The notes: a model not told the origin generated them from the sequence alone. A stretch of DNA of 32,000 nucleotides from Dickeya solani IPO 2222 (GCF_001644705.1 NZ_CP015137.1:2280001-2312000), one strand, 5' to 3'. Shown: positions 2,934 through 30,564, counted from the stretch's first letter. Numbers and translations are program-made.

Positions 2934-2970
2934 TATTATTTCTGCCTCTGCAATTATTCCTGTCCCTGCA

Positions 2971-5972: not shown

Positions 5973-6082
5973 AAGCGCACTCCTGGCGGTTAGCGGGGTG
6001 AAAAAGAGCGAACGGCGTGTCCGGCGTCATGGTATGGGGTGTTTCATGATATGTGGCGTTTCATAGCGGCGGCGCGACGGGG

Positions 6083-6595: not shown

Positions 6596-6596
6596 G

Positions 6597-8158: not shown

Positions 8159-8255
8159 GACTTTTCCCCCGTCAATACCGTTTGTATCAGACTACCGGTG
8201 ACAGCAGTTTTTTTTTATGCCTGCTTGCAGGTCGTACCGCTATTTCGGGGAAGTG

Positions 8256-11609: not shown

Positions 11610-11614
11610 CGACG

Positions 11615-13198: not shown

Positions 13199-13211
13199 GG
13201 CGTATCCTTCA

Positions 13212-15442: not shown

Positions 15443-15746
15443 GATGAAGCCGCTCGCGCAGGAAACGCGTCAGACTGGTCAAATTCTGGAAGGCATCAAA
15501 AACGCGGTCGTCCGTCAGGTCGAACAGATCGCCGTTTAGGTTGTAGGCCGCTTCGCAGTGGTCGCTGAGTACGGCAATCAGAGTGACGATATTGATAGAA
15601 TCCAGTCGCCCCTCTTCGCCGAACAGTGGCGCTCCCTGAAAGATCTCGGCGATACGGCCGTTATCGACGCCAATCGCGGTGAGTTTGTCGCGCAGGAGGG
15701 TATACAACGTGTCATCATCATGATGAGTAATTACCGGATAATCCAT
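15435..15746 (-). CDS. Small carrier protein (ACP/PCP-like, 103 aa); first gene of the minus-strand operon
   Basis: 'GRLDSINIVTLIAVL' is an attachment-Ser motif. Start moved to the ATG at 15746 ('MDYPVI'), which has a strong SD 'AAGGGGAG'. Confidence 0.65.
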   Translation of the reverse strand: MDYPVITHHDDDTLYTLLRDKLTAIGVDNGRIAEIFQGAPLFGEEGRLDSINIVTLIAVLSDHCEAAYNLNGDLFDLTDDRVFDAFQNLTSLTRFLRERLHHG

Positions 15747-15880
15747 TCTACTCCCCTTATCTGTCTCTCTGACGGGAGTATAACCAGCGTTATTCAGGCG
15801 TTTTGTTTGAAATTGCATGCCAGCCGATGCGGGAGGACCAATATTGTCAGATCGGCGGTAAAATGGGCATAGTGTCTTCT

Positions 15881-15895: not shown

Positions 15896-16464
15896 GCGTT
15901 TTTTGTTCGAATGTTTCTATCATCGACATTCTGCTGGGAGCGTGTGCGAAATATAATAGGGTGTGATCTGAGCGTTCCGTCAGGTATAGCAGGCAACAGG
16001 GATATTCGAGGCATAGCAGAATGCAGAGCGAAAATAAACAGAGGGAGAAAATGACCTTTCTCTCTCCTGCGAACCTTGGAGGATAACAAGAGAGAGAAGG
16101 GCTAACAATATAGCGTTATTGCCCACCATACTGAGGGTTACAGATAGATTGGCCGCCTGCATTCACCTCCGTCACTGACTTATGCCAGCTTCCGGCGATT
16201 CACTGGGTTGCCGCCTTCCTGCTACCCGAATTATTTAGGGCATAGAATTAATAAACTAACAAATATTTCCCTGGTGTGCGCCAATTTGGCTTTCCGATCT
16301 TTAAAGCAGAACGGATGTTTTTATTTTTGTGTTTGATGTTATTTTTTGAAAATTCTAAGGATTTTGTATCGGGAAAGATAGTTAGACTTAGGTATAGGTT
16401 GATACTATACTTTCGTGCCGTTATGGTCGGGCTGAGCTGTCGCACGCGATTTTGGGAGAGTTGG

Positions 16465-17217
16465 ATGTCTATAACATTCTCTAACGTTGACTTCATCAAT
16501 AGCACAATACAAAACTATCTTAACCAAAAGTTAAAAAGTTATGGCGACCCCAAGTACGCCTATTTAATCATGAACAAGAAGAAACCGACGGATGTTGTGA
16601 TCATCTCCAACTATCCGACGGAGTGGGTTGATATTTACAGAAATAACAATTATCAGCATATTGACCCGGTGATTCTGACTGCTATCAACAAAATTTCCCC
16701 TTTCTCCTGGGATGATGAGCTGGTAATCAGTTCAAAACTGAAGTTTTCCAGAATATTCAATCTCTCCAAAGAATATGACATTGTTAATGGTTATACCTTT
16801 GTGTTGCACGATCCGGGTAACAATCTGGCCGCCTTGTCTTTCATGATTGAGGAACACCGCAGCGAAGAACTGGAAAAAATTGTTCAGAATAATAAAGATA
16901 AATTGCAAATGCTGTTGATTTCGGCCCATGAAAAACTCACCTCTCTTTACCGAGAGATGAGCAGAAACAGAAACAACAGTAAGTCGCAGGAAGCCGATCT
17001 TTTCTCACAAAGAGAAAACGAAATTCTCTACTGGGCAAGCATGGGAAAAACCTATCAGGAGATTGCGCTTATTCTCGGTATCACCACCAGTACAGTAAAA
17101 TTTCATATCGGCAACGTTGTGAAAAAACTGGGCGTGCTGAATGCCAAGCATGCTATCAGGCTCGGCGTTGAAATGAATCTGATCAAGCCAGTGGGACCAG
17201 CAAAGGCAAGGTCTTAA
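16465..17217 (+). CDS. expR: LuxR-family acyl-homoserine-lactone receptor ExpR
   Basis: 'MSITFSNVDFINSTIQNYL...' followed by an autoinducer-binding domain. C-terminal HTH 'ENEILYWASMGKTYQEIALILGITTSTVKFHIGNVVKKLGV'. Start at 16465 with SD 'GGGAGAG'; the ORF-track start at 16276 is over-extended. Confidence 0.95.
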   Translation: MSITFSNVDFINSTIQNYLNQKLKSYGDPKYAYLIMNKKKPTDVVIISNYPTEWVDIYRNNNYQHIDPVILTAINKISPFSWDDELVISSKLKFSRIFNLSKEYDIVNGYTFVLHDPGNNLAALSFMIEEHRSEELEKIVQNNKDKLQMLLISAHEKLTSLYREMSRNRNNSKSQEADLFSQRENEILYWASMGKTYQEIALILGITTSTVKFHIGNVVKKLGVLNAKHAIRLGVEMNLIKPVGPAKARS

Positions 17218-17821
17218 GCTGCTCGGGTTCGGCGTCTGTTATCTGTGTAATGCGTTCGATCAGCGCGTATCGACTTTCATCGTCAGTGGGCAGGTGCAGC
17301 AGATAGATTTTCTCCTGTTTTTCCGATAACCCTTGCTGAATGATGGAAATGCGCCAGCCTGAACGTTTTAACAAGGTCAGCATAGGGTGGCTGACAATGG
17401 TGAGTATCCCGTCATAATGGCATTTTCTGGCGTAATTGATCATGGCAAGAAATAATGTCAGACAAGCTGGGTTACGGGTGCCAATCAAATTTCTCACCCG
17501 ATCGCGGTCGACGAAAAACCGGCTAGATTCAATGTAATTTCCTTCGGGGATATTGAGACCGTCGAAATAAGAGAAAAATGTGCCAGTAATCATGTTGGGA
17601 TATTTAATTTCTATAAATCTGACACTGCAAATTATTTTTCCTTCCTTGACGCCTAACAAGTAGGTCGTATGTTCATTATCGTACTCGTCAAATTCCATCC
17701 CGTTAATACAGTTAACGGTCCAGTCCAGACGGTCCTTAAATGTCTCTTTGCGTAGTGTAAACACCTCATCCAGCTTGTTATTTGACATTAAGCTAAAACC
17801 TACATCAAATATTTCTAACAT
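17183..17821 (-). CDS. expI: LuxI-family acyl-homoserine-lactone synthase ExpI
   Basis: 'MLEIFDV...FTLRKETFKDRLDW...EFDEYD...SRFFV...TIVSHPMLTLLKRSGW'. ATG at 17821 with SD 'GGGGGA'. Confidence 0.95.
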   Translation of the reverse strand: MLEIFDVGFSLMSNNKLDEVFTLRKETFKDRLDWTVNCINGMEFDEYDNEHTTYLLGVKEGKIICSVRFIEIKYPNMITGTFFSYFDGLNIPEGNYIESSRFFVDRDRVRNLIGTRNPACLTLFLAMINYARKCHYDGILTIVSHPMLTLLKRSGWRISIIQQGLSEKQEKIYLLHLPTDDESRYALIERITQITDAEPEQLKTLPLLVPLA

Positions 17822-18397
17822 ATTTCCCCCTGTCATCACTTTTGTGTCTTTTTACGCGAAACTCACCTGGTGGGGATATATGTTAACGTTTTTACCGCTT
17901 GCTTTTCCAGCGTGATTATTTGCGTCCATTTAAGGAAAGTTTATTTTCATTAGTTGACATATTATTTCCTTTTCTATCCTCATTGTGGCGGCTGCCAACA
18001 GGACAATTCCCTCTGCTGTCGTAGTAAAACCCGTCTGGACTGGTACAGGTGGTCCGACGTGGTTAACGGTCATGCACCGTCTGGTCGGTGTTTTTTGGGC
18101 ATAAAGCGGCGGTATGATTAATTGGCGGACAGGGTTGCCGCCATAAATATTGACGTCGATTTGGCAAGGGGCGTGATGTGCTGTAATCCCTGCTTTCCGA
18201 CATACCGTTTCCACCTGACGAGGCCGGCTAGGGTATTCAGACGATGTGCGTGAAGGTGATACTAAAAAAGTATCAATCACGATGAGAAACTGTGTTTAAT
18301 TGATGAAAGTATTAGCGTGGTAATGATGTATTCGTTTTGTCATTGTCATCTGATAGAGCTGCACGGATGATAACAAACTGAAAAAAGGGACTGACAT

Positions 18398-21085
18398 ATG
18401 CAGAAAAACACGATGTTCAGACAGACGTTGCTGGTTGCGCTGGTGCTGGCGGTTACAACGGCAAACCATGCGGCGATTGCCGCGGAAAGTTCGGGGTCAG
18501 GAGCCACGGCGTCATCGGCCGCGGCCGCGGCGGTTGGGACGATTGATCAGGTTTCGTTTGGCAACAGCGCGTCGGAGAAAAGCCATAGTCTGATCGACAA
18601 TAACAGCCAGACGCTCTCCGGCGGGCTGGGCGAATCCGCCCGCAAATTACTGCCTCTCAGCCCGGCGGGCGTTTACGGCGGCAGCCTGACGGTTACCCTG
18701 CGGGTGGATCCGCTGCGCCGTAACTACGTTTCCGTCAAGCTGTGGGGAGAAGATGACGGTAACTACGATACCGGCCGCCTGTACTTGTATATCGTCAGGG
18801 ATGGTGTTGACTATCAGGTCGGCTACCGTCACGAAGGCGACTATGCGCCGCTCAGCGTTACCCATTGGAATAAGCCGTTGCCTGGGCGCTTCTTCTACTC
18901 AACCACCTTGCTGCCTTATGCGATGACCAAAGGAAGCAGTACCGTTACCCTGAAAATCGTTTCTACCGGCCGTCTCTATCCGTTCGGCAACGGCGGCCCG
19001 GATGCCAGCAATCCGTATCAGTACGCGATGAATGTGCCGAGCCGCGGGATTTACCGGGCTTACACCCATGTTGAGCCGTTCCTCGACGTTTCGGGCGAAA
19101 GGCAGGGCAGTGCGCCGGCGGTCAGCACCCGTCCTTCTCCGGGCGATGAGATGCTGGGCGCGAATGGTTCGTTCCGCGTTGCCATCAATAACCGCATCAC
19201 CAGCCTGCTTGGCAAGGAGCCGACAACTGCGGATCTCTCCGGCGGAGATCTGCGGTATCTCGCTCATGCGTACGCCATTCCGGAACTGAAAAGCTACCAA
19301 AATCCGGCGGTGGTGAGCCAGGTCGTCGCCACACTGGATGCTTACGCCGCGCAATACTATGCCGACAACAACACCGTGAAAAATTGGGGGGGAAATTTTG
19401 GCTCGCAGGGTCAGGCGATCTATTACCTGCGCGAGATGCTGACTGCCGATATCCTCAATGCATCTGTCAGTTATGGTGCTGCCGGTACTAAAAAACGCCG
19501 TATCGCCTGGGCCGATATGCTGTTTGCCAGCCGTGAGTACGGCCGGTTGCAAAATCGCCTGAGATTGAGCAACCAGAACCTGATAGCCAATACCAGTATC
19601 TACTTCGCCAACAAAGGTATGCTGGTGCTGAAAGATTCGCGCGCTTTCCCGGAGGAAACCGCGCAGCGCTATATCAAGGAAGCTGTCGGGCTTTTAGCGT
19701 GGAGCGGTGATGATAAGGCGGACAGTAATGGTAATGGCCTGCCGGATGATGGCGGTTGGAAACCGTTTGGCAGCAACTACTATCAGGTCACCGACAAAGG
19801 CCAAACCCGCGAGTGGGGCTATGTCGGCGCGGGGTATGGGGAAGTGCAGTCGTATCTGGCGGAATATTATCGTGTCACCGGTAATGAGGATTTCCGCACG
19901 CAGATGGTGAAAATGACCAAAGCGCGCGCGCCGTTCCGCCGTCCGGCGATTGAAATCGGTAATGGCGCCACCTACCGTTCGATGGAAGCGATTGGCCTGC
20001 TGGCCTGGCGCGGCGCGCATGAAAGCGACGGCAATTTCGCTGGTTACATCGCTTATGCCGACGCGGTGAATACCAACGAACGCGCTAAGGCGTTGCGTGT
20101 CGCCGCCGCCAGCAAAGATGCGACGCTCATGGGTTACGCCAGACAAATGCTGGACGATAATCAGTTCTTCGCCAACCTGGGTGGGTCGGAGTCCGCGTTT
20201 GAAGCGCTGGACGTATTCGCCGATTATCAGACGATCAAAGCGGCGAGCGACAGCGGTGTCCGTCTGCCGATGACGGACGGACAGCCTGACTTTGCCTGGG
20301 TGGATGAAGAGAACGCTATCGCCGCGATCAAAAAGGGAGATGAACGCCTGTGGCTGAGCGCTTACTGGGAGGCGAAAGCGGGGACGGGCATCAACGGTCT
20401 GGCGCGTTTCCACTTTAGTACGTCCGGCTATGACCAATATGGCGTACTGGAAACCACGCCGATCTTCCGATCGACCTCGGTGTATGCGCGCCCCAACATC
20501 ATCGATATGCCGGAGAAAACCCCTTACACACCGCCCAACCCGCCGGATAACGCCTATGCCGGCGAGCTGCTGCCGCTGGGGTCGACGCCGACCGATGCGT
20601 CCAGTGATGATCCGTTCCGGGGGAAGGCCGACTTTTATGCTTTGCGCTTCGGCCACTATCTGATGGGGATTAACGCCAACGCCAGCAATAGCTACGTGCT
20701 GAAAACGCCGGTCGGCTTCAACGCGGCGGAAGACTTGGTTTCGCAGCGAACGCAATCGGGCGATGTGACCGTAGGGCCGCGTACCAGCGTGGTGCTCTAT
20801 CTGGATGGTACCCGTGATGCTAAACCGGTGCCCGGCACACCGCTGTACCTGAAAGCGCAGAGCAGCAACGGCGTCACCGGACTATCCTGGACGGCAGCGT
20901 CTGGCGCCGAGCGCTACAAAATATTGCGTGCCACCGGTGAAAACGGTGACTACCAGACGGTTGCCACCGTGAGCGCTAACGCCTACAGCGACAGTTCAAA
21001 AGTACCGACTGGCGGCTACTACTACCGGGTTGTTGCCGTGAACGGCAATGGCGAAAGCTACCCATCAATGTGGAGCCATCCCTGA
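18398..21085 (+). CDS. Large exported protein of unknown function with a C-terminal fibronectin type III domain
   Basis: Signal peptide 'MFRQTLLVALVLAVTTANHAAIA'. C-terminal 'LSWTAASGAERYKILRATGENGDYQTVATVSANAYSD...YYYRVVAVNGNGES' is a classic Fn3 pattern. I saw no HExxH motif. Confidence 0.85.
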   Translation: MQKNTMFRQTLLVALVLAVTTANHAAIAAESSGSGATASSAAAAAVGTIDQVSFGNSASEKSHSLIDNNSQTLSGGLGESARKLLPLSPAGVYGGSLTVTLRVDPLRRNYVSVKLWGEDDGNYDTGRLYLYIVRDGVDYQVGYRHEGDYAPLSVTHWNKPLPGRFFYSTTLLPYAMTKGSSTVTLKIVSTGRLYPFGNGGPDASNPYQYAMNVPSRGIYRAYTHVEPFLDVSGERQGSAPAVSTRPSPGDEMLGANGSFRVAINNRITSLLGKEPTTADLSGGDLRYLAHAYAIPELKSYQNPAVVSQVVATLDAYAAQYYADNNTVKNWGGNFGSQGQAIYYLREMLTADILNASVSYGAAGTKKRRIAWADMLFASREYGRLQNRLRLSNQNLIANTSIYFANKGMLVLKDSRAFPEETAQRYIKEAVGLLAWSGDDKADSNGNGLPDDGGWKPFGSNYYQVTDKGQTREWGYVGAGYGEVQSYLAEYYRVTGNEDFRTQMVKMTKARAPFRRPAIEIGNGATYRSMEAIGLLAWRGAHESDGNFAGYIAYADAVNTNERAKALRVAAASKDATLMGYARQMLDDNQFFANLGGSESAFEALDVFADYQTIKAASDSGVRLPMTDGQPDFAWVDEENAIAAIKKGDERLWLSAYWEAKAGTGINGLARFHFSTSGYDQYGVLETTPIFRSTSVYARPNIIDMPEKTPYTPPNPPDNAYAGELLPLGSTPTDASSDDPFRGKADFYALRFGHYLMGINANASNSYVLKTPVGFNAAEDLVSQRTQSGDVTVGPRTSVVLYLDGTRDAKPVPGTPLYLKAQSSNGVTGLSWTAASGAERYKILRATGENGDYQTVATVSANAYSDSSKVPTGGYYYRVVAVNGNGESYPSMWSHP

Positions 21086-22439: not shown

Positions 22440-22856
22440 ATGCCAGGAGCGGCTCGCTTAAATGACATCGGAAGCGGACATGATTGCTTTCCCGATACCC
22501 CGGTAACAGAAGGCAGCACTGACGTATTGATTAATGGCCTCCCGGCCGCACGCGTTGGCGATACGGTAAAAATGCACGGATGTCCCTGTCCTCAGGGGCC
22601 TCATGGTGTGCATGGTAGAAAAATAGCATCAGGATCTTCTACGGTATCGATTAATGGGAAATCTGCCGCGCGAATAGGTGACGACATTGATTGTGGCGGC
22701 CTCCTTGTTTCCGGCAGCAGCAACGTCATTATTGGTGATATACCCTATAAATCTCCAGTGCAACACTGCGTTGAAGCGGCGGTAAAAAGGCGCGATCCTT
22801 TGATCTCTTTTTCAGATATCGTGGAGAATATCGCTCCTCCCCGGTGGAGCCGGTAA
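22440..22856 (+). CDS. PAAR-domain protein (T6SS spike tip) with a roughly 38-aa C-terminal tail
   Basis: 'INGLPAARVGD', 'INGKSAARIGD', His/Cys ligand pattern 'GSGHDC', 'HGCPCPQGPHG' and 'SSNVIIGD'. SD 'AAGGAG'. Confidence 0.9.
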   Translation: MPGAARLNDIGSGHDCFPDTPVTEGSTDVLINGLPAARVGDTVKMHGCPCPQGPHGVHGRKIASGSSTVSINGKSAARIGDDIDCGGLLVSGSSNVIIGDIPYKSPVQHCVEAAVKRRDPLISFSDIVENIAPPRWSR

Positions 22857-23008
22857 TGAGTAATACAACGTATCTGGTGCCAGTGGGCACTGGCGGTTTT
22901 GAGATTGCATGTCGATTTGGACCTGTTTGCGGGAATAATACTACCTGTATACCGGTCCGTATCACGCAGGTATGTCCTTTTCGAGATTATTCATTGTTTT
23001 TTAAATAG
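22856..23008 (+). CDS. Unlisted 50-aa Cys-rich ORF translationally coupled (TAATG) to the PAAR gene; possibly a 5' gene remnant
   Basis: Translated by hand: MSNTTYLVPVGTGGFEIACRFGPVCGNNTTCIPVRITQVCPFRDYSLFFK. It runs across the GC-to-AT composition break at about 22975 and overlaps the convergent gene by 22 nt. Confidence 0.3.
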   Translation: MSNTTYLVPVGTGGFEIACRFGPVCGNNTTCIPVRITQVCPFRDYSLFFK

Positions 23009-23478
23009 TTTTTTATATCCGAGTATGTTTTATACTTAAATGTGAATTTACTATTCTGATTGATACCATCAAACCCAGAGAGTTTATTATCTTTGGATAT
23101 CCGGTCATTTGACTTCAAAATTCCATTGTGAATACGATAACCTTTAATTTCATATAGCGTCCCATCAATATCAGCGCCGGGGTGATATTGTTTCCATGAA
23201 ACAAGGACTATAATATTTCTTGCTCTTTCTAAATTTATAAAGAAGACGGTATCTATATGCGCCTTACCGCCTTCTGGTTCATAAGTATCTATAATGTATT
23301 GCTTATCTTGATCTTTCTGCAATAGCACAACATTATTGTCATCTTTTTCAATAAACAGTATTTCTGATTTATTCTCTAACGAGAAAGGGCCGTGAACGAT
23401 CTTTGATGACCAAGAGAAAAATGGGATAAATAAAACAATAAGCAATAAATAGTTAGATGGAGTATTACATTTCATCAT
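22987..23478 (-). CDS. Exported hypothetical protein (163 aa), AT-rich island
   Basis: Start moved to 'MMKCNTPSNYLLLIVLFIPFFSWSS' (signal-like), which has SD 'AAGGTG'. No family recognised. Confidence 0.6.
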   Translation of the reverse strand: MMKCNTPSNYLLLIVLFIPFFSWSSKIVHGPFSLENKSEILFIEKDDNNVVLLQKDQDKQYIIDTYEPEGGKAHIDTVFFINLERARNIIVLVSWKQYHPGADIDGTLYEIKGYRIHNGILKSNDRISKDNKLSGFDGINQNSKFTFKYKTYSDIKNYLKNNE

Positions 23479-23506
23479 AACACCTTGTTGATTTACTCGT
23501 ATTAAT

Positions 23507-24241
23507 TTATTTCTCATCCAATGAGAAATCATCAGCGGTAACCCAGGCAATCAGTGCCTTACCGGATTTAATTTCATATCTTATTTTATAAAATAATCCA
23601 TTATCACTCATATCCAGCAGTTTAAAGCGATCTCCGGTGATCAGGTATGATTTTTTCTTATCCGTTATTATTGGAGAATTTAATAATGTTGTTTTCTCCA
23701 CTGATACTATACCAAACAGTGGTGTTCTCTCAGAGTAGATACTCCCATCATTTAGAATTTCAGTCTCGTTAGCTACATCCTCTTTAAAATAAGTGCGTTT
23801 AATCATACCACAACCTACACATGCATCGCGGAATATGAGCGTCCATTTATCATTTGATATCTGGTAAATATCTTCATTCCATTTCCCCTCATCTTTCCAT
23901 AAACTAATCACATTGTTTTTATTGACGGAGTAGTTGCATATGGATTTCTTTTCGGGTAGAACAGGTTTTTCATTTATTCCATTCTCTGTTATCAAGAATA
24001 GAATTGAGCATTTGTTAATGTCGCTATTTGTTGTTGCAATCAGGTACTTTCTTCCAGTAATTATTGCTGATGTTGTCTTTTCATAACCATTGTTAATCAT
24101 ATTTCTGATGTTATTGGGAACAGAAAAACCATCACAATAATCTTTACTACATAGAGTTTCATCTGCAAGTGTTGTGAATGAGATGAGGAAGAATAAAACT
24201 AAAAAAGTTCTCTTTAAGGTGGTGAGCTTCATCTTATTCAC
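23507..24241 (-). CDS. Exported hypothetical protein with an SH3b-like C-terminal segment
   Basis: Signal peptide 'LKRTFLVLFFLISFTTLADE'. C-terminal 'SYLITGDRFKLLDMSDNGLFYKIRY'. Confidence 0.7.
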   Translation of the reverse strand: MNKMKLTTLKRTFLVLFFLISFTTLADETLCSKDYCDGFSVPNNIRNMINNGYEKTTSAIITGRKYLIATTNSDINKCSILFLITENGINEKPVLPEKKSICNYSVNKNNVISLWKDEGKWNEDIYQISNDKWTLIFRDACVGCGMIKRTYFKEDVANETEILNDGSIYSERTPLFGIVSVEKTTLLNSPIITDKKKSYLITGDRFKLLDMSDNGLFYKIRYEIKSGKALIAWVTADDFSLDEK

Positions 24242-24280: not shown

Positions 24281-25225
24281 TTATAATGTTAGCTCTGAGC
24301 AGAGCATATTACCATCTGTATTTTTGTTCTTGTCTGAAACATACCTGACTCGACACCATTTATCATCATCCTGAATTGACAGTAAGGTAATGTTATCCCC
24401 CTTTATTAGGTAAGAGTTCTTGGGGTTTTTATTTTCATCATAGAAAAAAGATTTATCTGATTTTACTTTAAATGTTGAATATTTTTCACAATCATTAGAT
24501 TTCTTTCCATTTTCTACCACGATAGGTATCAATGATATTTGATCATCCTTATTTTTTTCTGCTTTGATATGGGCATTGTCCGCAGCTTTTGAGTTATATT
24601 CTAGCCACGTATTTTTATTGTATGACTGGCATTGCCCATGCTTATCAGTGAGTAATATTTGGTATTCATCGTTTAGCATGGCACTTTTATTTTTATATAT
24701 TTTATAAATTAAACTATCTTTCCCACGAAAGAGAATTAATGGAATGTAAGTTGTTTTTCCATTTAAAAAATAGGATGTATCTACCGTGTCAATATTATTT
24801 GATACATCATTAATTTGTTTTTCAACAAGATCCATATAATCATCTGAAACCGGTGTGTTTAACCCGCACAAGCCTTCTTTCGAAGCAACACCGTTTTGTT
24901 TGCTTTTTATATCGACATATAGACAGTCTGCATAAAAATTACCGTTTTTAAATTGCAATGTCATATAAGCGGTATAGTCATGCAAAGAACGGGCTGAGAC
25001 AATAATTGATGGTTTATTATTAAAAAATCCAAACGAAACAGCAGGATTACCGGTATAGTTTTCTTCAAAATTTAAAACCCCCTTTCCCTTTTCACTCACC
25101 GCATAGATTTCCCCTTTATTTTTATCGTAGCCGTAATTGATGTTCGATTCGTCAGCTATTGCTGAATTATTGATTAGTGAGCATAATAAGCATGCTGCTT
25201 TCATTTTCATGATTGACATTCTCAA
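24281..25225 (-). CDS. Exported hypothetical protein with an SH3b-like C-terminal segment
   Basis: Signal peptide 'MKMKAACLLCSLINNSAIADE'; the start could be Met1, Met6 or Met8. C-terminal 'SYLIKGDNITLLSIQDDDKWCRVRY'. Confidence 0.7.
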   Translation of the reverse strand: MRMSIMKMKAACLLCSLINNSAIADESNINYGYDKNKGEIYAVSEKGKGVLNFEENYTGNPAVSFGFFNNKPSIIVSARSLHDYTAYMTLQFKNGNFYADCLYVDIKSKQNGVASKEGLCGLNTPVSDDYMDLVEKQINDVSNNIDTVDTSYFLNGKTTYIPLILFRGKDSLIYKIYKNKSAMLNDEYQILLTDKHGQCQSYNKNTWLEYNSKAADNAHIKAEKNKDDQISLIPIVVENGKKSNDCEKYSTFKVKSDKSFFYDENKNPKNSYLIKGDNITLLSIQDDDKWCRVRYVSDKNKNTDGNMLCSELTL

Positions 25226-25282: not shown

Positions 25283-25669
25283 TTAGGGAAGTATACTGTC
25301 AAAGTACTTTATTTCATCCAGATAATTTTCGACGAGGCAATTGTTCATCCTAGTAGTTTCTGCATCTGTTTCTTTAGATTCAGAAATTTCAAACTGGCAT
25401 TTTTTTTCTATTGTCAAATCCCAAGATTTTCTCAGTTCAAAAATTAATCTTTTCTTTTCTGGGTTATCTTCAATGGTTTTTTTGATAGCCTGATCCAGTT
25501 TCTTAAGAGCAGTAGCTTTATCATTTTCTGATTTAACATCGATACTGTTTAACTCATTTTTTTCTTTTTCAGAAAAAGCAGAAAAACAGTGGGGTACATA
25601 AATAAATAACAAGGTTATTATGGTTATGAATTTTTTATTTCTGTTGTAATTCACCTTATAGATCTCCAT
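25283..25669 (-). CDS. Small exported protein, DUF1311/LprI (lysozyme-inhibitor)-like by motif pattern
   Basis: Signal 'KKFITIITLLFIYVPHCFSA'. 'L..L..AIKK......K..L...RKSW....EKKC ... NNCL.....DEI..F' resembles the DUF1311 L-x-Q-x-W-x-R-x-C ... C ... R core. The start is ATG 25669 or GTG 25654. Confidence 0.5.
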   Translation of the reverse strand: MEIYKVNYNRNKKFITIITLLFIYVPHCFSAFSEKEKNELNSIDVKSENDKATALKKLDQAIKKTIEDNPEKKRLIFELRKSWDLTIEKKCQFEISESKETDAETTRMNNCLVENYLDEIKYFDSILP

Positions 25670-25975: not shown

Positions 25976-26725
25976 ATGAAAAAAATAATAATGACAATCA
26001 TGATTTTAATATCATGTAACGCAATGGCGGAAGAGCTAAGTCATGATATTAAGGCAACGCCATTAATTAAGGTCAATAAAAAAGATAGTGAATACAATCG
26101 TATTTGTTTATACTTAAATGAAAAATGTAATAGTTATTCGGCCGAAATATGGAAAGAGGGGAAAGTCAGTGATGCCTACTATCTTATTGATAAATCACCA
26201 CAAGTCATGAAAATAATAAAAGATGGAAATTCATATAAGGTTAGTGGCGGATGGTCATTCAGGGATTACCATCATAGTAATGAAAAGAAAGACAACAGTG
26301 ATGATATATTATCTCCGACTGGTTTTATAATCTATCCTGCTATATATCCAATCAAAAAAAATAAAATATCATTAGCTTTGGTTTATAAATGGGAAACCAG
26401 TTATTCTGGTGGTGGAAAAGAAGATAACTATGCTGATTTTATTATGCTTAATGATGATAATTCATATAAAGTAGCATTCTCCGATATTCCATTCTCATCA
26501 AAAGAAAGTATAAAAGCATGCTTTAAAGAAGATGATTATAAGAAAAAATCACATTGCGATGATGAAAACTGGAGTGTGTTGTCTATAAAATATCAAGATA
26601 CAGGGAAGGAGTATTATGAATGGGAATTCGTAACTAAATATTATTCATGGCCGGCCTTTGAAGATAAATCAAAAATGAAAGTTGAAATTAATAAAGAGAA
26701 AAGATATCCATTTGAAATAAAATGA
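25976..26725 (+). CDS. Exported protein or possible lipoprotein (249 aa), unknown function
   Basis: 'MKKIIMTIMILISCNAMAEE' can be read as a lipobox (LISC) or as an AMA-EE signal-peptidase I site. Convergent with the 806-aa gene. Confidence 0.7.
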   Translation: MKKIIMTIMILISCNAMAEELSHDIKATPLIKVNKKDSEYNRICLYLNEKCNSYSAEIWKEGKVSDAYYLIDKSPQVMKIIKDGNSYKVSGGWSFRDYHHSNEKKDNSDDILSPTGFIIYPAIYPIKKNKISLALVYKWETSYSGGGKEDNYADFIMLNDDNSYKVAFSDIPFSSKESIKACFKEDDYKKKSHCDDENWSVLSIKYQDTGKEYYEWEFVTKYYSWPAFEDKSKMKVEINKEKRYPFEIK

Positions 26726-26772: not shown

Positions 26773-29193
26773 CTATTCCAATCTTTGAATTCTGCTTCTA
26801 ATATCAGAAATTACTCTCCTGTTATTTGAATTTTCATAAAGAGATAATGCACGCCTGTAAGCTTTTAATGCCTCGAATTTGTCTTTTTTTGTTCCCTCTT
26901 CATTGCTGAATGGGTCATGGTAACATCCCCAACTATATGCATATACGCGATAGTTGTAGATAGCACTTTCTTCAAAAGAAAAAACACCATTTTTTTCAAG
27001 GGTGTTAAGATGTTTTGCACCTAAAACGGAGACGATTTTTTCAAAATATTGCAATCTGTCTATATACCCGTTAAATCCACCGTTAATTCGGGCTGTTACC
27101 ATGTTTAAATCATCTTTTTGTGCGTTTTCTTTCACTTTTTTATAAACACAATAAAACCAGAATGCGGAAAGAACACAATGAGGATACTCAGTGACTCTCT
27201 CTTTGGCGCTTGATGTTGAAACAAAATCCTCACCCACGTGTTGACCATAGCTACTATATGTATCTTCGTGAGTTAACTGGATTAGCCCTCTGCCAAACCA
27301 CGGTGCATAACTTTTTCTATCACCACCTTTTTCTTTCGTATATATAAGGCCACCACTCTCATGACATACTTGTGCCAGAAAATGTGCTTTCTCTCTACAT
27401 GTGTTTATTTCATATTTTTTGAACCCATCATTAAACGTTTTTATATAACGTTCTAATGTTTCTTTTCCAGCTTGAGGTGCAATGACAGATAGCTCATCCA
27501 ATGTAATATCTCGTCCGCAGGCACACTGATTTCTTGTAGCAATAGCATCCAAAAACTCCACCGGATGAAAATGCCAAACAGGCTTGCCCGATTTAAACTC
27601 AGGTATTTCACTCATCCATGCCATATCATCTCGCCATTTCTTCAGATACGGCATCATTTTCGGGTAGCTATCGTTATTAAGAAAAGACTGCCAGTGTTTA
27701 TGCTTGCTGTCGCCAAACCATTCACTATCATGTTTGACTATCAGCCGACGTACCAGCTCAGGTGCATTATTCTCTCCCGAATGTAGCCCTTCGAAGATAC
27801 GTCTCTCAAACGCAGCCAGTTCGTATTGTGATAAATTACCGTCATTATTCTGGTCGATGACTTTCACCAGCTTTTTATACGTCTCGGACCCCTGTTGGCT
27901 TTCAAACTCGGTATCTCCCCGAATGGATTGTGATACCCAGTCAAAGATGCCTTTTAGAAAATATTCTTTTAGCAGGGAACCGAAATCGTCCGTCGATGCT
28001 TCTTCCAGCGCAGTAAATCCCAGCTTAGATAAGTCATGTTGGCTTAACTCGTCTACATCTTCGCATTTAATCCAGTTATCAGCGGTGAGTTGAAACCATG
28101 TTGTACCCTGTGCTTCTATCTGGTTGGTCTTATCGCGAGGTAGAATTCTTCCGGCATTCATGCCTTTGGTCATATCATTTGTTGGTGTGAATGTTGTTTC
28201 GGCACCTTCACCGGATCTCTGATATAACGGCTTTCCTTCTTTTATCTTCACAAAAGCCCGGCCGGTTTTAATCCCCTTGGGATTAGAGAGAAAACCGGGC
28301 ATATTGGTATCAACGCTGATGACTTCAATGTGCGAATAAAAGTCTACCTCCACACGATTGGAATCAGATTTGTCGGGAGCGTTATCTTCTGCTAAAAAGC
28401 CGATCGCGTCTCCGGCGTTGATCGAAAATTTCTCTTCGGGGATGACCACCGTGTCATATTTTCCCTGCTCAACGGCTTTGGTCATCCATTCCGGCATACG
28501 GTGATAGCGAGGGGCCGTTTGTTTGACAAATTTATCTTGCAGAGAAACCCAGAATTTTTCTTCACTCACTTTCCCGTCTTTCAGACGCTGTGCCAGCCCG
28601 AAAACATCATTACTATTTTCGCGTTCTACTTTGAATGTTTCCTGCTTTGACACCACCAGTAGATCATTTTCTTTGAGTGTGATATTTCCCGCTTTAGGCA
28701 ATTTTTGCCCGCTGATTTCCCGGCCGTTGTATTCGTTTGTCGGTAAGCTATTTATATTGGGTTTGACACGATAACAATTCATCAGCGCTGGGTAGACTGA
28801 AGCAGGGGCAAGGTGCATATACAGCGTGTAAAACGTCAACCACGTGCTCTGGTCGTCCGGATTCGGTTTATGTTCCGAACGCACCAGCAGAAATGTGCTG
28901 GAATAGCGCAGTTGATATTTGTCATACGGCGCGGTGCAGTAGTTTTTATTGATGCGCCATGCCACCACGTTTCCGCTGGCGATACACTGAAGTGGAACCG
29001 CCTTGTCGGCGTTGATTGAAGTCAGTACTGATTCTGGAGCGCTATGACGGCTGATATGGATGCCGCCATGCCACTGTCGGTTACTGCTGGCCAGCCACCA
29101 GCCATCGGGTTCGTGCCGCAAAACGTTCAGTAACGTATCCAGACTGTCGTAATCCTTTCCATCCGCTTTTCGTATCGGATAACACGTATCCAT
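26773..29193 (-). CDS. 806-aa signal-less multi-domain protein: degenerate M23/LytM-like N-terminal region, EF-hand loop, and a GH19/lysozyme-like C-terminal domain. Candidate T6SS peptidoglycan-targeting effector.
   Basis: GH19-type block 'AHFLAQVCHESGGLIYTKE...YAPWFGRGLIQLTHEDTY...SAFWFY...ARINGGFNGYIDR'. EF-hand 'DQNNDGNLSQYE'. M23-like 'WHGGIHIS' and 'INAGDAIGF...YSHIEVIS'. SD 'AGGGAGA'. No N-terminal signal peptide. Confidence 0.85.
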   Translation of the reverse strand: MDTCYPIRKADGKDYDSLDTLLNVLRHEPDGWWLASSNRQWHGGIHISRHSAPESVLTSINADKAVPLQCIASGNVVAWRINKNYCTAPYDKYQLRYSSTFLLVRSEHKPNPDDQSTWLTFYTLYMHLAPASVYPALMNCYRVKPNINSLPTNEYNGREISGQKLPKAGNITLKENDLLVVSKQETFKVERENSNDVFGLAQRLKDGKVSEEKFWVSLQDKFVKQTAPRYHRMPEWMTKAVEQGKYDTVVIPEEKFSINAGDAIGFLAEDNAPDKSDSNRVEVDFYSHIEVISVDTNMPGFLSNPKGIKTGRAFVKIKEGKPLYQRSGEGAETTFTPTNDMTKGMNAGRILPRDKTNQIEAQGTTWFQLTADNWIKCEDVDELSQHDLSKLGFTALEEASTDDFGSLLKEYFLKGIFDWVSQSIRGDTEFESQQGSETYKKLVKVIDQNNDGNLSQYELAAFERRIFEGLHSGENNAPELVRRLIVKHDSEWFGDSKHKHWQSFLNNDSYPKMMPYLKKWRDDMAWMSEIPEFKSGKPVWHFHPVEFLDAIATRNQCACGRDITLDELSVIAPQAGKETLERYIKTFNDGFKKYEINTCREKAHFLAQVCHESGGLIYTKEKGGDRKSYAPWFGRGLIQLTHEDTYSSYGQHVGEDFVSTSSAKERVTEYPHCVLSAFWFYCVYKKVKENAQKDDLNMVTARINGGFNGYIDRLQYFEKIVSVLGAKHLNTLEKNGVFSFEESAIYNYRVYAYSWGCYHDPFSNEEGTKKDKFEALKAYRRALSLYENSNNRRVISDIRSRIQRLE

Positions 29194-29381: not shown

Positions 29382-29702
29382 CTACCCAACCGTTTTCACT
29401 AATGTCAAAATCTCTACCCGTTTCTCTGGTGACAGCCTCAAAAACGCCAGCATCAATTCTGCCAATTCATCATCAGCGGTGTAAAAGAATGCCAGCGGGA
29501 CGTCGAGCGCGTTCGCGAGTTGTTGAGCGGTGTCAATACTGACTTCGTGCACGCCCTTTTCATATCGGTTAATGCGAGTGCTTGCCACAAATTCATCGAT
29601 CCTGGCGGCGATGCCTAGTTTTTTCTGTGACAAGCCTTTTGCGAGCCGGGCTTGCTTAAGTCGTTGACAGAAAACGTCATGGTAGTTTGGTCTTGATTTC
29701 AT
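29382..29702 (-). CDS. XRE-family HTH transcriptional regulator (106 aa)
   Basis: 'LKQARLAKGLSQKKLGIAARIDEFVASTRINRYEKGVHEVSIDTAQQLANALDVPLAFFY'. Paralogue of 30080-30397. Confidence 0.85.
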   Translation of the reverse strand: MKSRPNYHDVFCQRLKQARLAKGLSQKKLGIAARIDEFVASTRINRYEKGVHEVSIDTAQQLANALDVPLAFFYTADDELAELMLAFLRLSPEKRVEILTLVKTVG

Positions 29703-29703
29703 G

Positions 29704-29720
29704 ACTACGAGAATCGTAGT
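29704..29720. promoter_or_regulatory. Operator-like inverted repeat ACTACGA-GAA-TCGTAGT (proximal, abuts the XRE start codon)
   Basis: Perfect 7-3-7 inverted repeat, 1 nt from the ATG at 29702. Confidence 0.6.
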
Positions 29721-29735
29721 TTTTTCTTGAGTGAG

Positions 29736-29756
29736 ATACTACGAATAACGTAGTAT
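29736..29756. promoter_or_regulatory. Operator-like inverted repeat ATACTACG-AATAA-CGTAGTAT (distal, shared by divergent promoters)
   Basis: Its centre is 34 bp from the proximal repeat. It reads TAGTAT (-10-like) on both strands; TTGAGT lies 18 bp upstream on the + strand. Confidence 0.55.
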
Positions 29757-29799
29757 TTGCTGTGTCTGTTCCTTTAACAGTGACGAGTTAGGAGGCTGG

Positions 29800-30057
29800 A
29801 TGAAAAAGGATTGGCATCAGGCGGACATTATCGCCGCTTTACACAAGCAACGTACCTCAATGGCGGCGCTTTCCCGTTCCGCGGGTTTAAGTGCATCAAC
29901 ACTGGCGAATGTATTGGTCAGGCCCTGGCCCAAGGGTGAATGGCTGGTTGCCGAGGCGCTGGGAATTCACCCGGCCGAGATATGGCCGAGCCGGTATTAC
30001 GGTCAGGATGGTGAATTGATTGATCGTAAAATCAGAATAAGAGCGAGGCAGTGTTAA
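29800..30057 (+). CDS. Ner/Nlp (SfsB)-family small DNA-binding protein
   Basis: 'DWHQADIIAALHKQRTSMAALSRSAGLSASTLANVLVRPWPKGEWLVAEALGIHPAEIWPSRY' closely parallels E. coli Nlp and phage Mu Ner. SD 'AGGAGG'. Confidence 0.85.
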   Translation: MKKDWHQADIIAALHKQRTSMAALSRSAGLSASTLANVLVRPWPKGEWLVAEALGIHPAEIWPSRYYGQDGELIDRKIRIRARQC

Positions 30058-30079
30058 GCTGGTTCCGCTTTGTCTCCGG

Positions 30080-30397
30080 TTATTTATTTTCTAACGATGC
30101 AAGCAATTCGGTTTGCTGTTCCTTGGGCAAGTCGGCAAACAGCAGGATCATTTTTGCCAGATTGTCATCGTCAGCGTAGAAATAAGCCAGAGGGACATTG
30201 AGCGCTTCTGCGAGACGCTTCGCCGTCACGATATTCGCTTCATGCACACCCTTTTCATAGCGATTAATGCGTGCGCTGGCAACAAACTCATCAATCCCGG
30301 CTGCGATACCCAGCCCTTTCTGGGACAGCCCACGCAGTAAGCGAGCATCCTTGAGGCGTTGACTGAAAATATCATGGCGTTGCTGACGGGTGTTCAT
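30080..30397 (-). CDS. XRE-family HTH transcriptional regulator (105 aa from Met8; the ORF-track start at 30418 is an alternative)
   Basis: 'LKDARLLRGLSQKGLGIAAGIDEFVASARINRYEKGVHEANIVTAKRLAEALNVPLAYFY'. The Met8 start gives the same N-terminal length and the same repeat-N1-ATG geometry as the paralogue. Confidence 0.8.
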   Translation of the reverse strand: MNTRQQRHDIFSQRLKDARLLRGLSQKGLGIAAGIDEFVASARINRYEKGVHEANIVTAKRLAEALNVPLAYFYADDDNLAKMILLFADLPKEQQTELLASLENK

Positions 30398-30398
30398 A

Positions 30399-30415
30399 GC
30401 TACGATATTCGTAGT
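30399..30415. promoter_or_regulatory. Operator-like inverted repeat GCTACGA-TAT-TCGTAGT (proximal)
   Basis: One mismatch to the ACTACGA-N3-TCGTAGT pattern. It lies 1 nt from the ATG at 30397. Confidence 0.55.
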
Positions 30416-30432
30416 CATGGTGGGGTTTAGAT

Positions 30433-30449
30433 ACTACGATTATCGTAGT
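30433..30449. promoter_or_regulatory. Operator-like inverted repeat ACTACGA-TTA-TCGTAGT (distal)
   Basis: Perfect 7-3-7 repeat. Its centre is 34 bp from the proximal repeat. It overlaps a TAGTAT -10-like hexamer (minus strand), with TCGACT 16 bp upstream. Confidence 0.55.
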
Positions 30450-30507
30450 TATAGTCGATGCTTCTGTTTAGTGCCGATGCGATCAGGCGGAAAACGGAGT
30501 ATAATAA

Positions 30508-30537
30508 GCAACAAAAACGCCCTGAAAACAGGGCGTT
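30508..30537 (-). terminator. Rho-independent terminator of yicC
   Basis: The minus strand reads AACGCCCTG-TTTT-CAGGGCGTT followed by TTTTTGTT, about 28 nt after the yicC stop. Confidence 0.75.
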
Positions 30538-30564
30538 GTAATAGTCAGTGGAACGGTGCGGAAA

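Follow-up and report, generated by a model that had tools for sequence, protein, structure and literature searches.

A predicted WHIX-class T6SS effector of Dickeya solani and its probable PAAR carrier

The effector gene and its island

The window analyzed here is a 32,000-nucleotide stretch of the Dickeya solani IPO 2222 genome, and coordinates are counted from its first letter. It contains an 806-aa ORF on the minus strand together with a PAAR gene and a group of putative immunity genes:

22440..22856, plus strand: PAAR spike-tip protein, 138 aa (Pfam PAAR, E = 1e-22), probable effector carrier
22987..23550, minus strand: putative orphan TsiP-family immunity gene, 176-187 aa, matching genes downstream of other effector alleles
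23507..24241, minus strand: putative orphan immunity gene, 241-244 aa, signal peptide, corresponding to the immunity gene of an alternative Dickeya allele
24281..25225, minus strand: orphan immunity-like gene, 309-314 aa, signal peptide, matching L007:13493-14431
25283..25669, minus strand: small signal-peptide ORF, 123-128 aa, without a match to any immunity gene examined
25976..26725, plus strand: probable cognate immunity gene, 249 aa, N-terminal signal peptide or lipobox (MKKIIMTIMILISC...)
26773..29193, minus strand: effector gene, 806 aa, without signal peptide, predicted WHIX subclass I / TseP-type T6SS cargo effector

The 806-aa ORF described in an earlier note on this DNA was confirmed, and no signal-like hydrophobic stretch can be read at its N-terminus. 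All motifs listed in that note are found where it had placed them, namely WHGGIH (aa 41-46), SINAGDAIGF (aa 257-266), FYSHIEV (aa 285-291), FLAQVCHESGG (aa 605-615, including E612), E621, GRGLIQLT (aa 634-641), FWFY (aa 678-681) and INGGFNG (aa 703-709), with an EF-hand loop, DQNNDGNLSQYE, at aa 447-458; its two nucleotide ranges correspond to aa 35-295 and 575-725 as claimed. Searches returned 1,132 homologues. The exact protein is present in D. solani genomes, and in some strains it is annotated as a truncated 462-aa version. Apart from the PAAR gene, no T6SS core genes are found in the window, the core T6SS cluster of D. solani lying outside it, and no vgrG is present within 10 kb of the effector. 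Inverted repeats were sought as inversion scars that could explain the orientation of the effector relative to the PAAR and immunity genes, yielding only short AT-rich chance matches.

The 249-aa ORF is convergent with the effector, with 47 bp between the two stop codons, and is 45-47% identical (E about 1e-76) to the gene located directly downstream, on the same strand, of effectors of the same subtype at three loci (L005, L095 and L096). This similarity indicates that 25976-26725 is probably the cognate immunity gene. It is unrelated to TsiP, and its placement on the opposite strand is unusual and counts against our overall account. Three of the four ORFs beyond the cognate gene match immunity genes of other alleles. 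The ORF at 23507..24241 shares 72% identity (E = 4e-126) with the gene immediately following a 775-aa D. solani allele (P0004; L091:10329-11048), while that at 24281..25225 shows 30% identity over its full length (E = 5e-46) to the gene downstream of a second Pantoea WHIX effector. The TsiP-family ORF at 22987..23550 is 49% identical to the gene downstream of allele P0003 (L090:10376-10711), 35% identical to L095:8335-8826 and 29% identical (E = 5e-14) to a TsiP-like gene downstream of Aeromonas piscicola tseP. The fourth ORF, 25283-25669, resembles neither the 135/136-aa immunity proteins that accompany the Pantoea and E. coli orthologues nor the other neighbors tested, and its assignment as a DUF1311/LprI-type immunity protein was rejected, Pfam being unsupportive. 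The exported candidate immunity proteins that had been proposed next to the effector are borne out by both adjoining signal-peptide ORFs and immunity homologies. This assigns a probable cognate immunity gene on the opposite strand, and the array of orphans bears on strain competition among soft-rot Dickeya.

Domain architecture of the effector

The following features, all on the minus strand, were assigned within the effector:

29056..29073: WHxxxH motif (W41 H42 G G I H46), the defining and name-giving WHIX motif, equivalent to TseP H19/H23
28324..28332: H288-I-E290 ('HIEV'), invariant in 90/90 relatives; H288 equivalent to TseP H359
27820..27855: EF-hand loop D447-E458, between predicted helices 429-445 and 456-471, a feature shared with TseP
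27562..27735: block from 'VKHDSEW' (aa 486-492) to 'WHFHP' (aa 540-544), end of the WHIX domain; E491 equivalent to TseP E539
27538..29193: WHIX domain, aa 1-552, comprising a beta-rich body (aa ~44-400) and, C-terminal to it, a helical region (aa 410-552)
27019..27516: predicted compact ('loopless') GH19-type muramidase domain, aa ~560-725, assigned by PDB matches, fold and Glu pair
26776..27018: C-terminal tail subdomain, aa 726-806, a short beta-hairpin and three helices

Sequence and model comparisons support a GH19-type peptidoglycan hydrolase as the predicted activity of the C-terminal domain. The GH19 family of Pfam (PF00182) by itself stays below its curated threshold, with 20.7 bits (E = 4e-4) against a gathering score of 25.5, but matches to endolysins are significant at both the profile and the fold level, upholding the GH19-like domain proposed earlier. 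Single-sequence searches of the PDB with phmmer retrieved the endolysin 9ms7 (E = 7e-14) and TseP-C (8xcl, E = 1e-11), and a family profile retrieved the same two entries at E = 1e-27 and 3e-26, respectively. In Foldseek, 9ms7 aligned with a TM score of 0.79 (rmsd 2.9 Å, probability 1.0), followed by 9eoi (0.69) and 8xcl (0.53), and GH19-type chitinases and endolysins account for 39 of the best 41 matches. The candidate catalytic residues E612 (nt 27358-27360) and E621 (nt 27331-27333) both align with Glu in 9ms7. The tail that follows is confidently folded in the model (pLDDT 94-98), and sequence searches with it gave only weak matches to a single TPR/Sel1-like motif (E about 0.02). It is common to relatives from Cronobacter, Pantoea, Enterobacter, E. 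coli, Erwinia and Lonsdalea, and the combined GH19 and tail cassette is widespread, with 102 representative clusters at E<=1e-30.

Public records label the protein 'chitinase' or 'GH19 family protein'. In an alternative explanation, it would be a phage-derived endolysin or a secreted chitinase without any tie to the T6SS. The closest solved structures of the C-terminal domain are indeed phage endolysins, and the C-terminal half of the gene has a low GC content of 36%. However, phage genes are absent nearby, as is the signal peptide that a secreted chitinase would carry, and exported immunity proteins are encoded alongside the effector. The N-terminal domain adjoins vgrG or PAAR genes, orthologues immediately following vgrG in Pantoea-type T6SS clusters and in E. 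coli, and more than 98% of genomes encoding WHIX proteins also encode a T6SS (PMC12135965). In addition, the homologous TseP-C digests peptidoglycan (PMC11893102). We consider the phage or chitinase origin highly improbable and rejected it on genomic context; the position of the orthologues directly after vgrG agrees with the antibacterial T6SS effector first suggested for this ORF. Correcting the database label 'chitinase' for a gene of a plant pathogen is of local value.

The N-terminal 552 residues likely represent a delivery or loading domain, as suggested by homology and by published relatives, whereas the earlier note had seen no recognizable delivery domain (MIX, Rhs or VgrG). The entire domain is conserved across effectors with GH19, GH73, GH24, GH108, pesticin-like and CHAP C-termini and is 42-43% identical (E 1e-138 to 1e-154) to that of effectors tipped with GH73 or GH108. 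The WHxxxH motif is present in 88/88 aligned relatives, and the block at the end of the domain is similarly constant (S490 and W492 in 90/90, H488 and H543 in 89/90 and H541 in 88/90 relatives). An AF2 model of the domain (pLDDT 88.8, pTM 0.88) has no significant structural neighbor in the PDB or BFVD according to Foldseek. According to published work (Fridman et al. 2025, PMC12135965), the WHIX domain alone suffices to mediate secretion, and the final 14 aa of VgrG4 bind in its predicted cavity; the N-domain of TseP is reported to bind VgrG2. A 2026 paper states that the working of WHIX at the molecular level is still unexamined.

Based on its sequence, the effector is a T6SS toxin of the published WHIX class, subclass I, with a TseP-type architecture. 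Its cluster-mates at 90% identity (WP_226054264, WP_238550330, WP_263064244, WP_174254521, WP_023641248 and WP_284603740) appear in the tree file of Figure 1B of the WHIX paper and also in its CLANS files, so the suggestion that the architecture may be undescribed does not hold. The architecture was published between 2021 and 2025 and the protein is already in the WHIX catalogue, meaning that the finding as first stated adds little. Our literature search found no Dickeya-specific report on this locus.

The EF-hand, in agreement with its earlier assignment, has a canonical 12-residue loop with flanking helices and represents a candidate Ca site. Loop positions 1, 3, 5, 6, 8 and 12 are canonical (D447, N449, D451, G452, L454 and E458) and the loop is mostly conserved in 90 relatives, with Pfam scores below threshold.

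M23 peptidases are characterized by the consensus motifs xHxGxDxx, xGxxIGxxG and HxHxE. At the motif level, the N-domain resembles these with 'WHGGIHIS', 'AGDAIGF' and 'SHIEV', respectively, which had led to its description as a degenerate M23-like region. Compared with M23/LytM peptidases (PF01551), for example 3SLU, the M23 comparator used in the TseP paper (PMC11893102), HxxxD is replaced by HxxxH (aa 42-46) and HxH by HxE (aa 288-290). The Pfam family Peptidase_M23 (PF01551) gave no match at E<=1 for the full-length protein or at E<=10 for aa 1-295 and 296-552, and a family-profile search of all PDB sequences found no M23 chain at E<=10. Foldseek with the whole 552-aa N-domain model as query yielded no match at E<=1e-3 and no M23 protein among the 50 matches listed, the top PDB matches being cupins at a TM score of about 0.1, which represents noise. 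With Pfam, the PDB profile search and Foldseek (PDB, BFVD) all without a match, we rejected M23 membership, and the likeness is one of motifs without profile or fold support.

The residues of the histidine metal site proposed on this M23 basis coincide with the reported Zn-dependent amidase site of TseP. The TseP N-domain freed tri- and tetrapeptides, an activity that EDTA suppressed and Zn brought back (Wang et al., eLife 2025, PMC11893102), and mutating H19, H23, H109, H339, H359 or E539 abolished its activity (PMC11893102). These residues correspond to H42, H46, H127, D270 (not His), H288 and E491 of the Dickeya effector, five of the six being present. The earlier idea of a dual hydrolase, in this published form, would make the N-domain also a Zn-dependent N-acetylmuramoyl-L-alanine amidase, so that glycan strands and peptide stems would both be cut, an activity that is compatible with, and would add to, a role in delivery. 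Across 90 relatives, six His and two acidic positions show little or no variation, a pattern that fits a metal site better than a groove that simply binds a peptide. On the other hand, D270 at the position of TseP H339, combined with a Gly in place of H127 in 51/90 relatives, indicates that the published TseP ligand set is not conserved family-wide, and neither an amidase nor an M23 profile or fold match was found for the domain. The WHIX paper assigns the domain a cavity-based loading role and reports no toxicity for it, and in subclass II relatives WHIX is preceded by a distinct amidase or peptidase domain (PMC12135965), which would be redundant if WHIX itself were an efficient amidase. A Tae4-like match in our family-profile search of the PDB corresponds to such an extra domain. 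We regard an additional amidase activity as a tentative and somewhat doubtful proposal.

Spike carrier and proposed mechanism

The PAAR gene, correctly placed about 4 kb away in the earlier note, is located 3.9 kb from the effector, and its functional link to the effector is backed by a tail motif. C-terminal to the PAAR domain, aa 100-138 (nt 22737-22853) form a 39-aa extension whose last residues are ...IAPPRWSR. In a census of about 20 loci with shared ancestry, 15/17 long ORFs terminating just upstream of WHIX effectors have a hydrophobic-Ser-x ending, compared with a background rate of 3.2%, and about eight tail types can be distinguished (IPSR, RFSR, VPSR, GFSE/VSE, VFSH, PLSD, LYSG and NFSS). 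Enterobacterales commonly have Arg as the terminal residue and Burkholderiales Glu. Among PAARs, the tailed proteins terminate in WSR, TSR, LSR or ISR and the tail-less ones in ...VIIG or ...NALVG. The likeness of the ...PPRWSR extension to the spike endings upstream of WHIX effectors makes the neighboring PAAR, and not a VgrG, the probable carrier of the effector in Dickeya, as inferred from comparison of loci. Four D. solani loci encode exactly the same PAAR protein (100% identity), and two loci with differing toxin alleles have an identical PAAR tail. Two D. solani records lack a PAAR gene call, but their DNA is 100% identical and intact, indicating that the gene was simply not called; we rejected the idea that it is a pseudogene.

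Alternatively, the effector could ride a VgrG encoded elsewhere in D. solani, with the neighboring PAAR being an unrelated, generic tip. All published loading data for WHIX concern VgrG (Awe1 with VgrG4 and TseP with VgrG2), most orthologues examined directly follow vgrG, and Cronobacter orthologues are orphans without a spike gene within 8 kb. The PAAR gene is also convergent with the effector and distant from it, whereas PAAR is directly upstream at other tailed-PAAR loci. A second WHIX effector in Pantoea (L007) follows a tail-less 85-aa PAAR, showing that PAAR adjacency does not always come with a tail, and the published VgrG4 tail ends in ...SFSGR, one residue out of register with the hydrophobic-Ser-x motif (PMC12135965). 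Nevertheless, the Dickeya PAAR extension shares the C-terminal ending of those VgrG tails and is constant across Dickeya alleles. Moreover, Enterobacter ludwigii, Pectobacterium carotovorum and one further assembly have the order Hcp-VgrG-tailed PAAR-WHIX effector, and the VgrGs at these three loci lack the motif, terminating in ...SEDNH, ...APDRR or ...APLRP. We consider loading onto a distant VgrG unlikely.

The hydrophobic-Ser-x ending common to spike proteins adjacent to WHIX effectors, and also found on tailed PAARs, is the point of wider interest. WHIX effectors may read a C-terminal 'tail code' consisting of a hydrophobic residue, Ser and one terminal residue on either VgrG or PAAR, and in Dickeya, Pectobacterium and Enterobacter this code may have moved to a PAAR extended by ~40 aa, making PAAR the direct carrier. 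We see the case for such a code as evenly balanced. If true, it would provide a sequence-level rule pairing WHIX effectors with their spike carrier that is directly testable, and would explain the constancy of the WHIX domain and PAAR tail amid swaps of toxin and immunity genes in Dickeya.

Overall, the locus very probably encodes an antibacterial WHIX/TseP-type T6SS cargo effector with a PAAR carrier and convergent immunity gene in a polymorphic hotspot. In the proposed mechanism, the WHIX domain (aa 1-552) would dock the effector on the T6SS spike by forming a cap over a spike protein's C-terminal tail, in Dickeya probably the PAAR extension. After injection into the periplasm of a rival, the GH19-type domain (E612/E621) would cut the glycan strands of peptidoglycan and cause lysis, while the exported 249-aa protein would shield the producer. 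WHIX domains are 96-97% identical among Dickeya alleles with differing toxin domains. The locus may accordingly be viewed as a toxin hotspot in which the WHIX domain and PAAR tail are kept and toxin domain and immunity gene are swapped among Dickeya strains, IPO 2222 having likely retained three or more orphan immunity genes directed at other alleles.

Comparison with known systems

The founding member of the WHIX class is V. alginolyticus WP_005373349.1 and its characterized member is Awe1 of Aeromonas jandaei (Fridman et al., PLoS Biol 2025, PMC12135965); chitinase-like C-termini are the most common type, with 2,242 unique proteins (PMC12135965). The Dickeya effector shares with WHIX effectors the WHxxxH motif, a bipartite N-domain of ~550 aa, a C-domain predicted to target peptidoglycan, an adjacent signal-peptide immunity gene and nearby spike genes. 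Awe1 belongs to subclass II, possesses two toxin domains and is loaded on VgrG4, whereas the Dickeya effector has a single toxin domain extended by an 80-aa helical tail, an adjacent tailed PAAR and an inverted immunity gene.

TseP of Aeromonas dhakensis SSU, with the homologues AHA_1849 and PSPTO_5204 (Liang et al. 2021; Wang et al., eLife 2025, PMC11893102), has the domain order N-domain, EF-hand and GH19-like lysozyme, and the structure of TseP-C is available as 8XCL (PMC11893102). The same order is found in the Dickeya effector, as are most of the reported amidase-site residues. Three collinear BLASTP segments (E 6e-18, 3e-14 and 3e-11) connect it to the TseP orthologue of A. piscicola, which shares 96% identity with 8XCL across a 114-aa query fragment, and span the WH motif, HxE block, EF-hand, KHxSEW and GH19 domain. 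A numbering offset of -26 that fits six N-domain residues suggests that TseP E663 may be the second Glu, equivalent to E621. In both proteins the GC content of the C-domain is about 10 points lower, and the Dickeya island contains a TsiP-family gene. Identity to TseP is only 24-31%, however, and TseP-C is of the long GH19 type, with a ~45-60-residue insertion between the catalytic Glu pair and GRGLIQ and no tail. While tseP follows PAAR-VgrG and has TsiP directly downstream, this arrangement is not found in Dickeya, where the TsiP homologue occurs only as an orphan (22987-23550) and the probable cognate protein is the unrelated 249-aa one.

GH19-type phage endolysins (PWe2 9ms7, P. aeruginosa 9eoi, KTN6 gp46 8p8e and SPN1S 4ok7) match the C-domain in fold and catalytic Glu pair, with TM scores of 0.61-0.79. 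These endolysins, about 180-220 aa long, act as independent proteins, are released through phage lysis and lack a WHIX domain, tail subdomain and immunity gene. P. aeruginosa TseT, in work ascribed to Burkinshaw et al. in 2018, is reportedly a PAAR-dependent cargo effector whose loading needs a chaperone and co-chaperone. Like TseT, the Dickeya effector is a non-fused cargo effector proposed to ride an extended PAAR. TseT depends on chaperones, whereas the Dickeya island contains no chaperone gene (DUF4123 or DUF1795) and loading would instead proceed by insertion of a short C-terminal tail peptide into the WHIX cavity.

Domain organization of a WHIX effector in Dickeya solani

The open reading frame at 26773..29193 on the minus strand is genuine and encodes 806 aa, and every motif that the earlier note had read from it is found in place.

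Motifs of the 806-aa effector (residue numbers)
41-46, N-terminal part: WHGGIH
257-266, N-terminal part: SINAGDAIGF
285-291, N-terminal part: FYSHIEV
447-458, EF-hand loop: DQNNDGNLSQYE
605-615, C-terminal part: FLAQVCHESGG (with E612)
621, C-terminal part: E621
634-641, C-terminal part: GRGLIQLT
678-681, C-terminal part: FWFY
703-709, C-terminal part: INGGFNG

The identical protein is present in many D. solani genomes under the labels 'glycoside hydrolase family 19 protein' or 'chitinase', and the DNA is 100% identical among four D. solani loci. In several D. solani and D. dadantii records, that of IPO 2222 among them, the annotated product is only 462 aa long (P0122 and P0126, from the same 90% cluster). 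Truncation or a frameshift in some strains may account for this, or simply a difference in annotation. The gene is located in an island bordered by expI/expR genes on one side and yicC on the other, with a low GC content of 29-46% compared with about 55-63% across most of the flanks.

A homology search with the effector returned 1,132 matches. The first ca. 68% of the protein is kept at 38-45% identity in proteins with GH19, GH73 (PF01832), GH24, pesticin-like, CHAP or other C-termini. A constant N-terminus combined with varied C-termini is characteristic of polymorphic toxins built on an unvarying delivery module, and homology assigns residues 1-552 to the WHIX domain, the 'WHGGIHIS' string singled out in the earlier note being the name-giving motif. 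WHIX domains are known from 4,434 proteins, 2,242 of them with chitinase-like C-termini, are sufficient for T6SS secretion and possess a deep cavity predicted to cap the VgrG C-terminal tail (Fridman et al., 2025; PMC12135965). Six members of the effector's 90%-identity cluster (WP_226054264, WP_238550330, WP_263064244, WP_174254521, WP_023641248 and WP_284603740) all appear in the Figure 1B tree file of that paper, whose C-terminal CLANS file likewise contains five of the six, so the effector is already catalogued. The S1 Dataset of the same paper comprises 12,071 WHIX loci. The architecture that the earlier note considered possibly undescribed is a known one, that of WHIX subclass I and TseP. 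In the relatives P0082, P0097, P0100 and P0102 from Yersinia, Serratia and Enterobacter, WHIX is preceded by about 150 additional residues with similarity to the structure of the Tae4 amidase (4hz9, E=1e-15), which makes these proteins 'double-blade' subclass II effectors; in P0078, M23 and GH24 domains instead follow the WHIX domain.

Curated profiles alone said little about the domains, with sub-threshold Pfam matches to GH19 (20.7 bits, cut-off 25.5) and EF-hands and nothing useful from an NCBIfam search; the identity of the C-terminal domain was settled by comparison with solved structures. A sequence search aligned residues 562-726 with the GH19-type endolysin PWe2 (9ms7, E=7e-14) and with chain 8xcl (E=1e-11), and a family-profile search strengthens these matches to 1e-27 and 3e-26, respectively. 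The AlphaFold2 model of the full-length effector (pLDDT 89.6) superposes with 9ms7 at a TM of 0.79 and an rmsd of 2.9 Å, further structural matches being 9eoi, 8p8e, 8xcl and 4ok7. The two Glu of 9ms7 align with E612 and E621. The final 81 residues (726-806) form a small hairpin and three helices, represent the highest-confidence region of the model (pLDDT 94-98) and yield weak matches to a single TPR-like motif in sequence searches. This tail is not peculiar to Dickeya and is common to relatives in Cronobacter, Pantoea, Enterobacter, E. coli, Erwinia and Lonsdalea. Searching residues 553-806 against 1.84 billion representatives identified 102 clusters at E<=1e-30, most of which comprise the GH19 domain and about 60 residues of the tail, located C-terminally in proteins of roughly 250-1,185 aa. 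The GH19 domain and tail constitute a recurring toxin cassette.

Immunity genes, toxin alleles and neighbouring genes

Genes surrounding the effector (window positions)
22440-22856 (+): PAAR, spike-tip gene
22987-23550: putative orphan immunity gene, 49% identity to the gene after P0003 (allele of another Dickeya strain), 29% to a TsiP-like gene
23507-24241: putative orphan immunity gene, 72% identity to the gene after P0004 (775-aa D. solani allele)
24281-25225: putative orphan immunity gene, E=5e-46 to the gene after the second Pantoea WHIX effector
25976-26725 (+): 249-aa signal-peptide ORF, probable immunity gene
29382-29702 (-): XRE-type HTH regulator
29800-30057 (+): Ner-like HTH_35 gene
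30080-30418 (-): XRE-type HTH regulator

The 249-aa ORF is convergent with the effector, with 47 bp between the stop codons, and is its probable cognate immunity gene because homologues with 45-47% identity are found on the same strand directly downstream of same-subtype effectors at three loci. In contrast, sister-subtype orthologues (Pantoea P0020, E. coli P0024) possess an unrelated 135-136-aa immunity protein in its place. The homologue is co-directional with the effector in Cronobacter and two other assemblies while the Dickeya gene lies on the opposite strand, which is that of PAAR, suggesting an inversion of the effector and its regulators. No inverted repeats were found flanking the presumed inversion.

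Alleles in other Dickeya strains have WHIX domains that are 96-97% identical and toxin domains that differ. Each is followed by its own small gene, after which the 249-aa gene persists in full or with a truncated 5' end. Of the four ORFs that separate the 249-aa gene from PAAR, three resemble immunity genes belonging to other alleles; they are predicted to be an array of orphan immunity genes, and the locus a hotspot of polymorphic toxins.

The two XRE-type genes are paralogues (191 nt at 72% identity) with the Ner-like gene between them. Near-identical palindromes (29700-29719/30400-30419 and 29734-29754/30429-30449; core ACTACG..CGTAGT) overlap or precede each XRE start. Together with these sites, the trio spans 29382-30449. 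It immediately precedes the effector gene in every Dickeya allele examined and, given this constant position, may control effector expression. Between yicC and the regulators, additional cargo is inserted in other Dickeya strains (L090:2286-6197 and L091:4812-6606, the loci of P0003 and P0004, corresponding to window ca. 30450-30560), namely a 501-aa protein with cytidine-deaminase/MafB19-deaminase domains in one strain and ASCH, acetyltransferase and AAA_18 genes in another, which gives the site the appearance of a general hotspot for integration.

At 304-15818, the window contains a secondary-metabolite-type cluster with a phosphopantetheinyl transferase, two KAS III-like enzymes, an acyl-CoA dehydrogenase, two adenylating enzymes and a PLP-dependent decarboxylase, presumably resembling the Dickeya Vfm quorum-sensing locus. 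The expR-like (16276-17217, +) and expI-like (17183-17839, -) quorum-sensing genes are convergent and overlapping and occupy a patch of low GC content (41-42%). An 895-aa signal-peptide protein encoded at 18398-21085, whose sole Pfam match is a weak C-terminal fibronectin type III domain, is kept at the same position in all Dickeya loci examined.

T6SS context and predicted docking on the PAAR tail

No vgrG was found within 10 kb of the D. solani effector and no T6SS genes in the remainder of the window. Orthologues of the same C-terminal type are located directly 3' of vgrG in Pantoea-type T6SS clusters and in E. coli. The extreme C-terminus of VgrG4 is required for WHIX binding (Fridman et al., 2025; PMC12135965). 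In a small sample of phylogenetically related loci, VgrGs preceding WHIX effectors share an ending of a hydrophobic residue, Ser and one final residue, which occurs in 3.2% of background open frames.

Endings of VgrGs whose genes immediately precede a WHIX effector gene
...NIPSR: Pantoea, Dryocola, Scandinavium
...GRFSR: E. coli, Lelliottia
...FVPSR: Aeromonas
...FGFSE or ...FSVSE: Burkholderiales
...DVFSH: Vibrio
...KPLSD: Rosenbergiella

The PAAR protein of the window (138 aa) consists of a PAAR domain and a 39-aa extension, the end of which (...IAPPRWSR) most resembles the VgrG tails of E. coli and Lelliottia (...PPRRGRFSR). In Dickeya undicola, Enterobacter and Pectobacterium, tailed homologues terminate in ...QWSR, ...YTSR, ...LLSR, ...LISR or ...MLSR, and PAARs without a tail in ...VIIG or ...NALVG. 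E. ludwigii, P. carotovorum and one further assembly show the order Hcp, VgrG, tailed PAAR, WHIX effector, and the VgrG C-termini at these three loci lack the hydrophobic-Ser-x motif. The Dickeya PAAR tail is unchanged between loci with differing toxin domains. We infer that in Dickeya the WHIX domain would dock on the PAAR tail. Against this, the PAAR gene is convergent with the effector and 3.9 kb away, and the published VgrG4 tail (...SFSGR) is one residue out of register. Moreover, a second WHIX effector (764 aa) in a Pantoea agglomerans T6SS cluster (L007:10868-13491) comes after a tail-less 85-aa PAAR, so two WHIX effectors may depend on a single VgrG tail type (...NIPSR) or another loading route may exist. 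The shared ending and its proposed transfer to PAAR were not found in the accessible WHIX and TseP literature. A 2026 paper still calls WHIX function at the molecular level unexamined, and docking on the PAAR tail is cheap to test.

Overall, the earlier note was partly right. The candidate T6SS peptidoglycan-hydrolase effector postulated there, with its predicted activity, is borne out by the GH19-type fold and profile matches and by the orthologues after vgrG, and so are the EF-hand (loop 447-458), neighbouring immunity genes (249-aa ORF) and a relevant PAAR (tailed); novelty and M23 membership are not.

The M23 question and comparison with TseP

TseP combines a Zn-dependent amidase N-domain, an EF-hand and a C-terminal lysozyme, and its N-domain was superposed on 3SLU by its authors (Wang et al., 2025; PMC11893102), which overlaps with the M23 assignment of the earlier note. 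The GH19 half of the profile support expected there was obtained (9ms7, 1e-27 by family profile) and the M23 half was not. Peptidase_M23 gave no Pfam match even at E<=10 with the N-domain split into two halves, no M23 chain was found in a PDB profile search at E<=10, and Foldseek of the N-domain model (pLDDT 88.8, pTM 0.88) returned no significant neighbour. The motifs are HxxxH and HxE as opposed to HxxxD and HxH. M23 membership of the N-domain was rejected on these grounds.

An Aeromonas piscicola locus encodes PAAR, VgrG, an 871-aa TseP orthologue (96% identity to 8XCL over a 114-aa query fragment) and a TsiP-like gene. The Dickeya effector matches this orthologue in three collinear segments. 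Taking TseP numbering as A. piscicola numbering minus 26, TseP H19, H23, H109, H359 and E539 correspond to H42, H46, H127, H288 and E491, and the H339 position is occupied by D270. Among 90 relatives, H42, H46, H288, E290, H488, S490, W492, H541 and H543 are fully or almost fully conserved, but the H127 position is Gly in 51. The six His in this set (H42, H46, H288, H488, H541 and H543) would line the cavity of the WHIX domain. The many invariant His are compatible with a putative metal site, but the published TseP ligand set is not conserved family-wide. The GC content of the TseP C-domain drops by about 10 points (Wang et al., 2025; PMC11893102), and the Dickeya effector follows the same pattern, its GC content falling from 46% over the N-domain to 36% over the C-domain.
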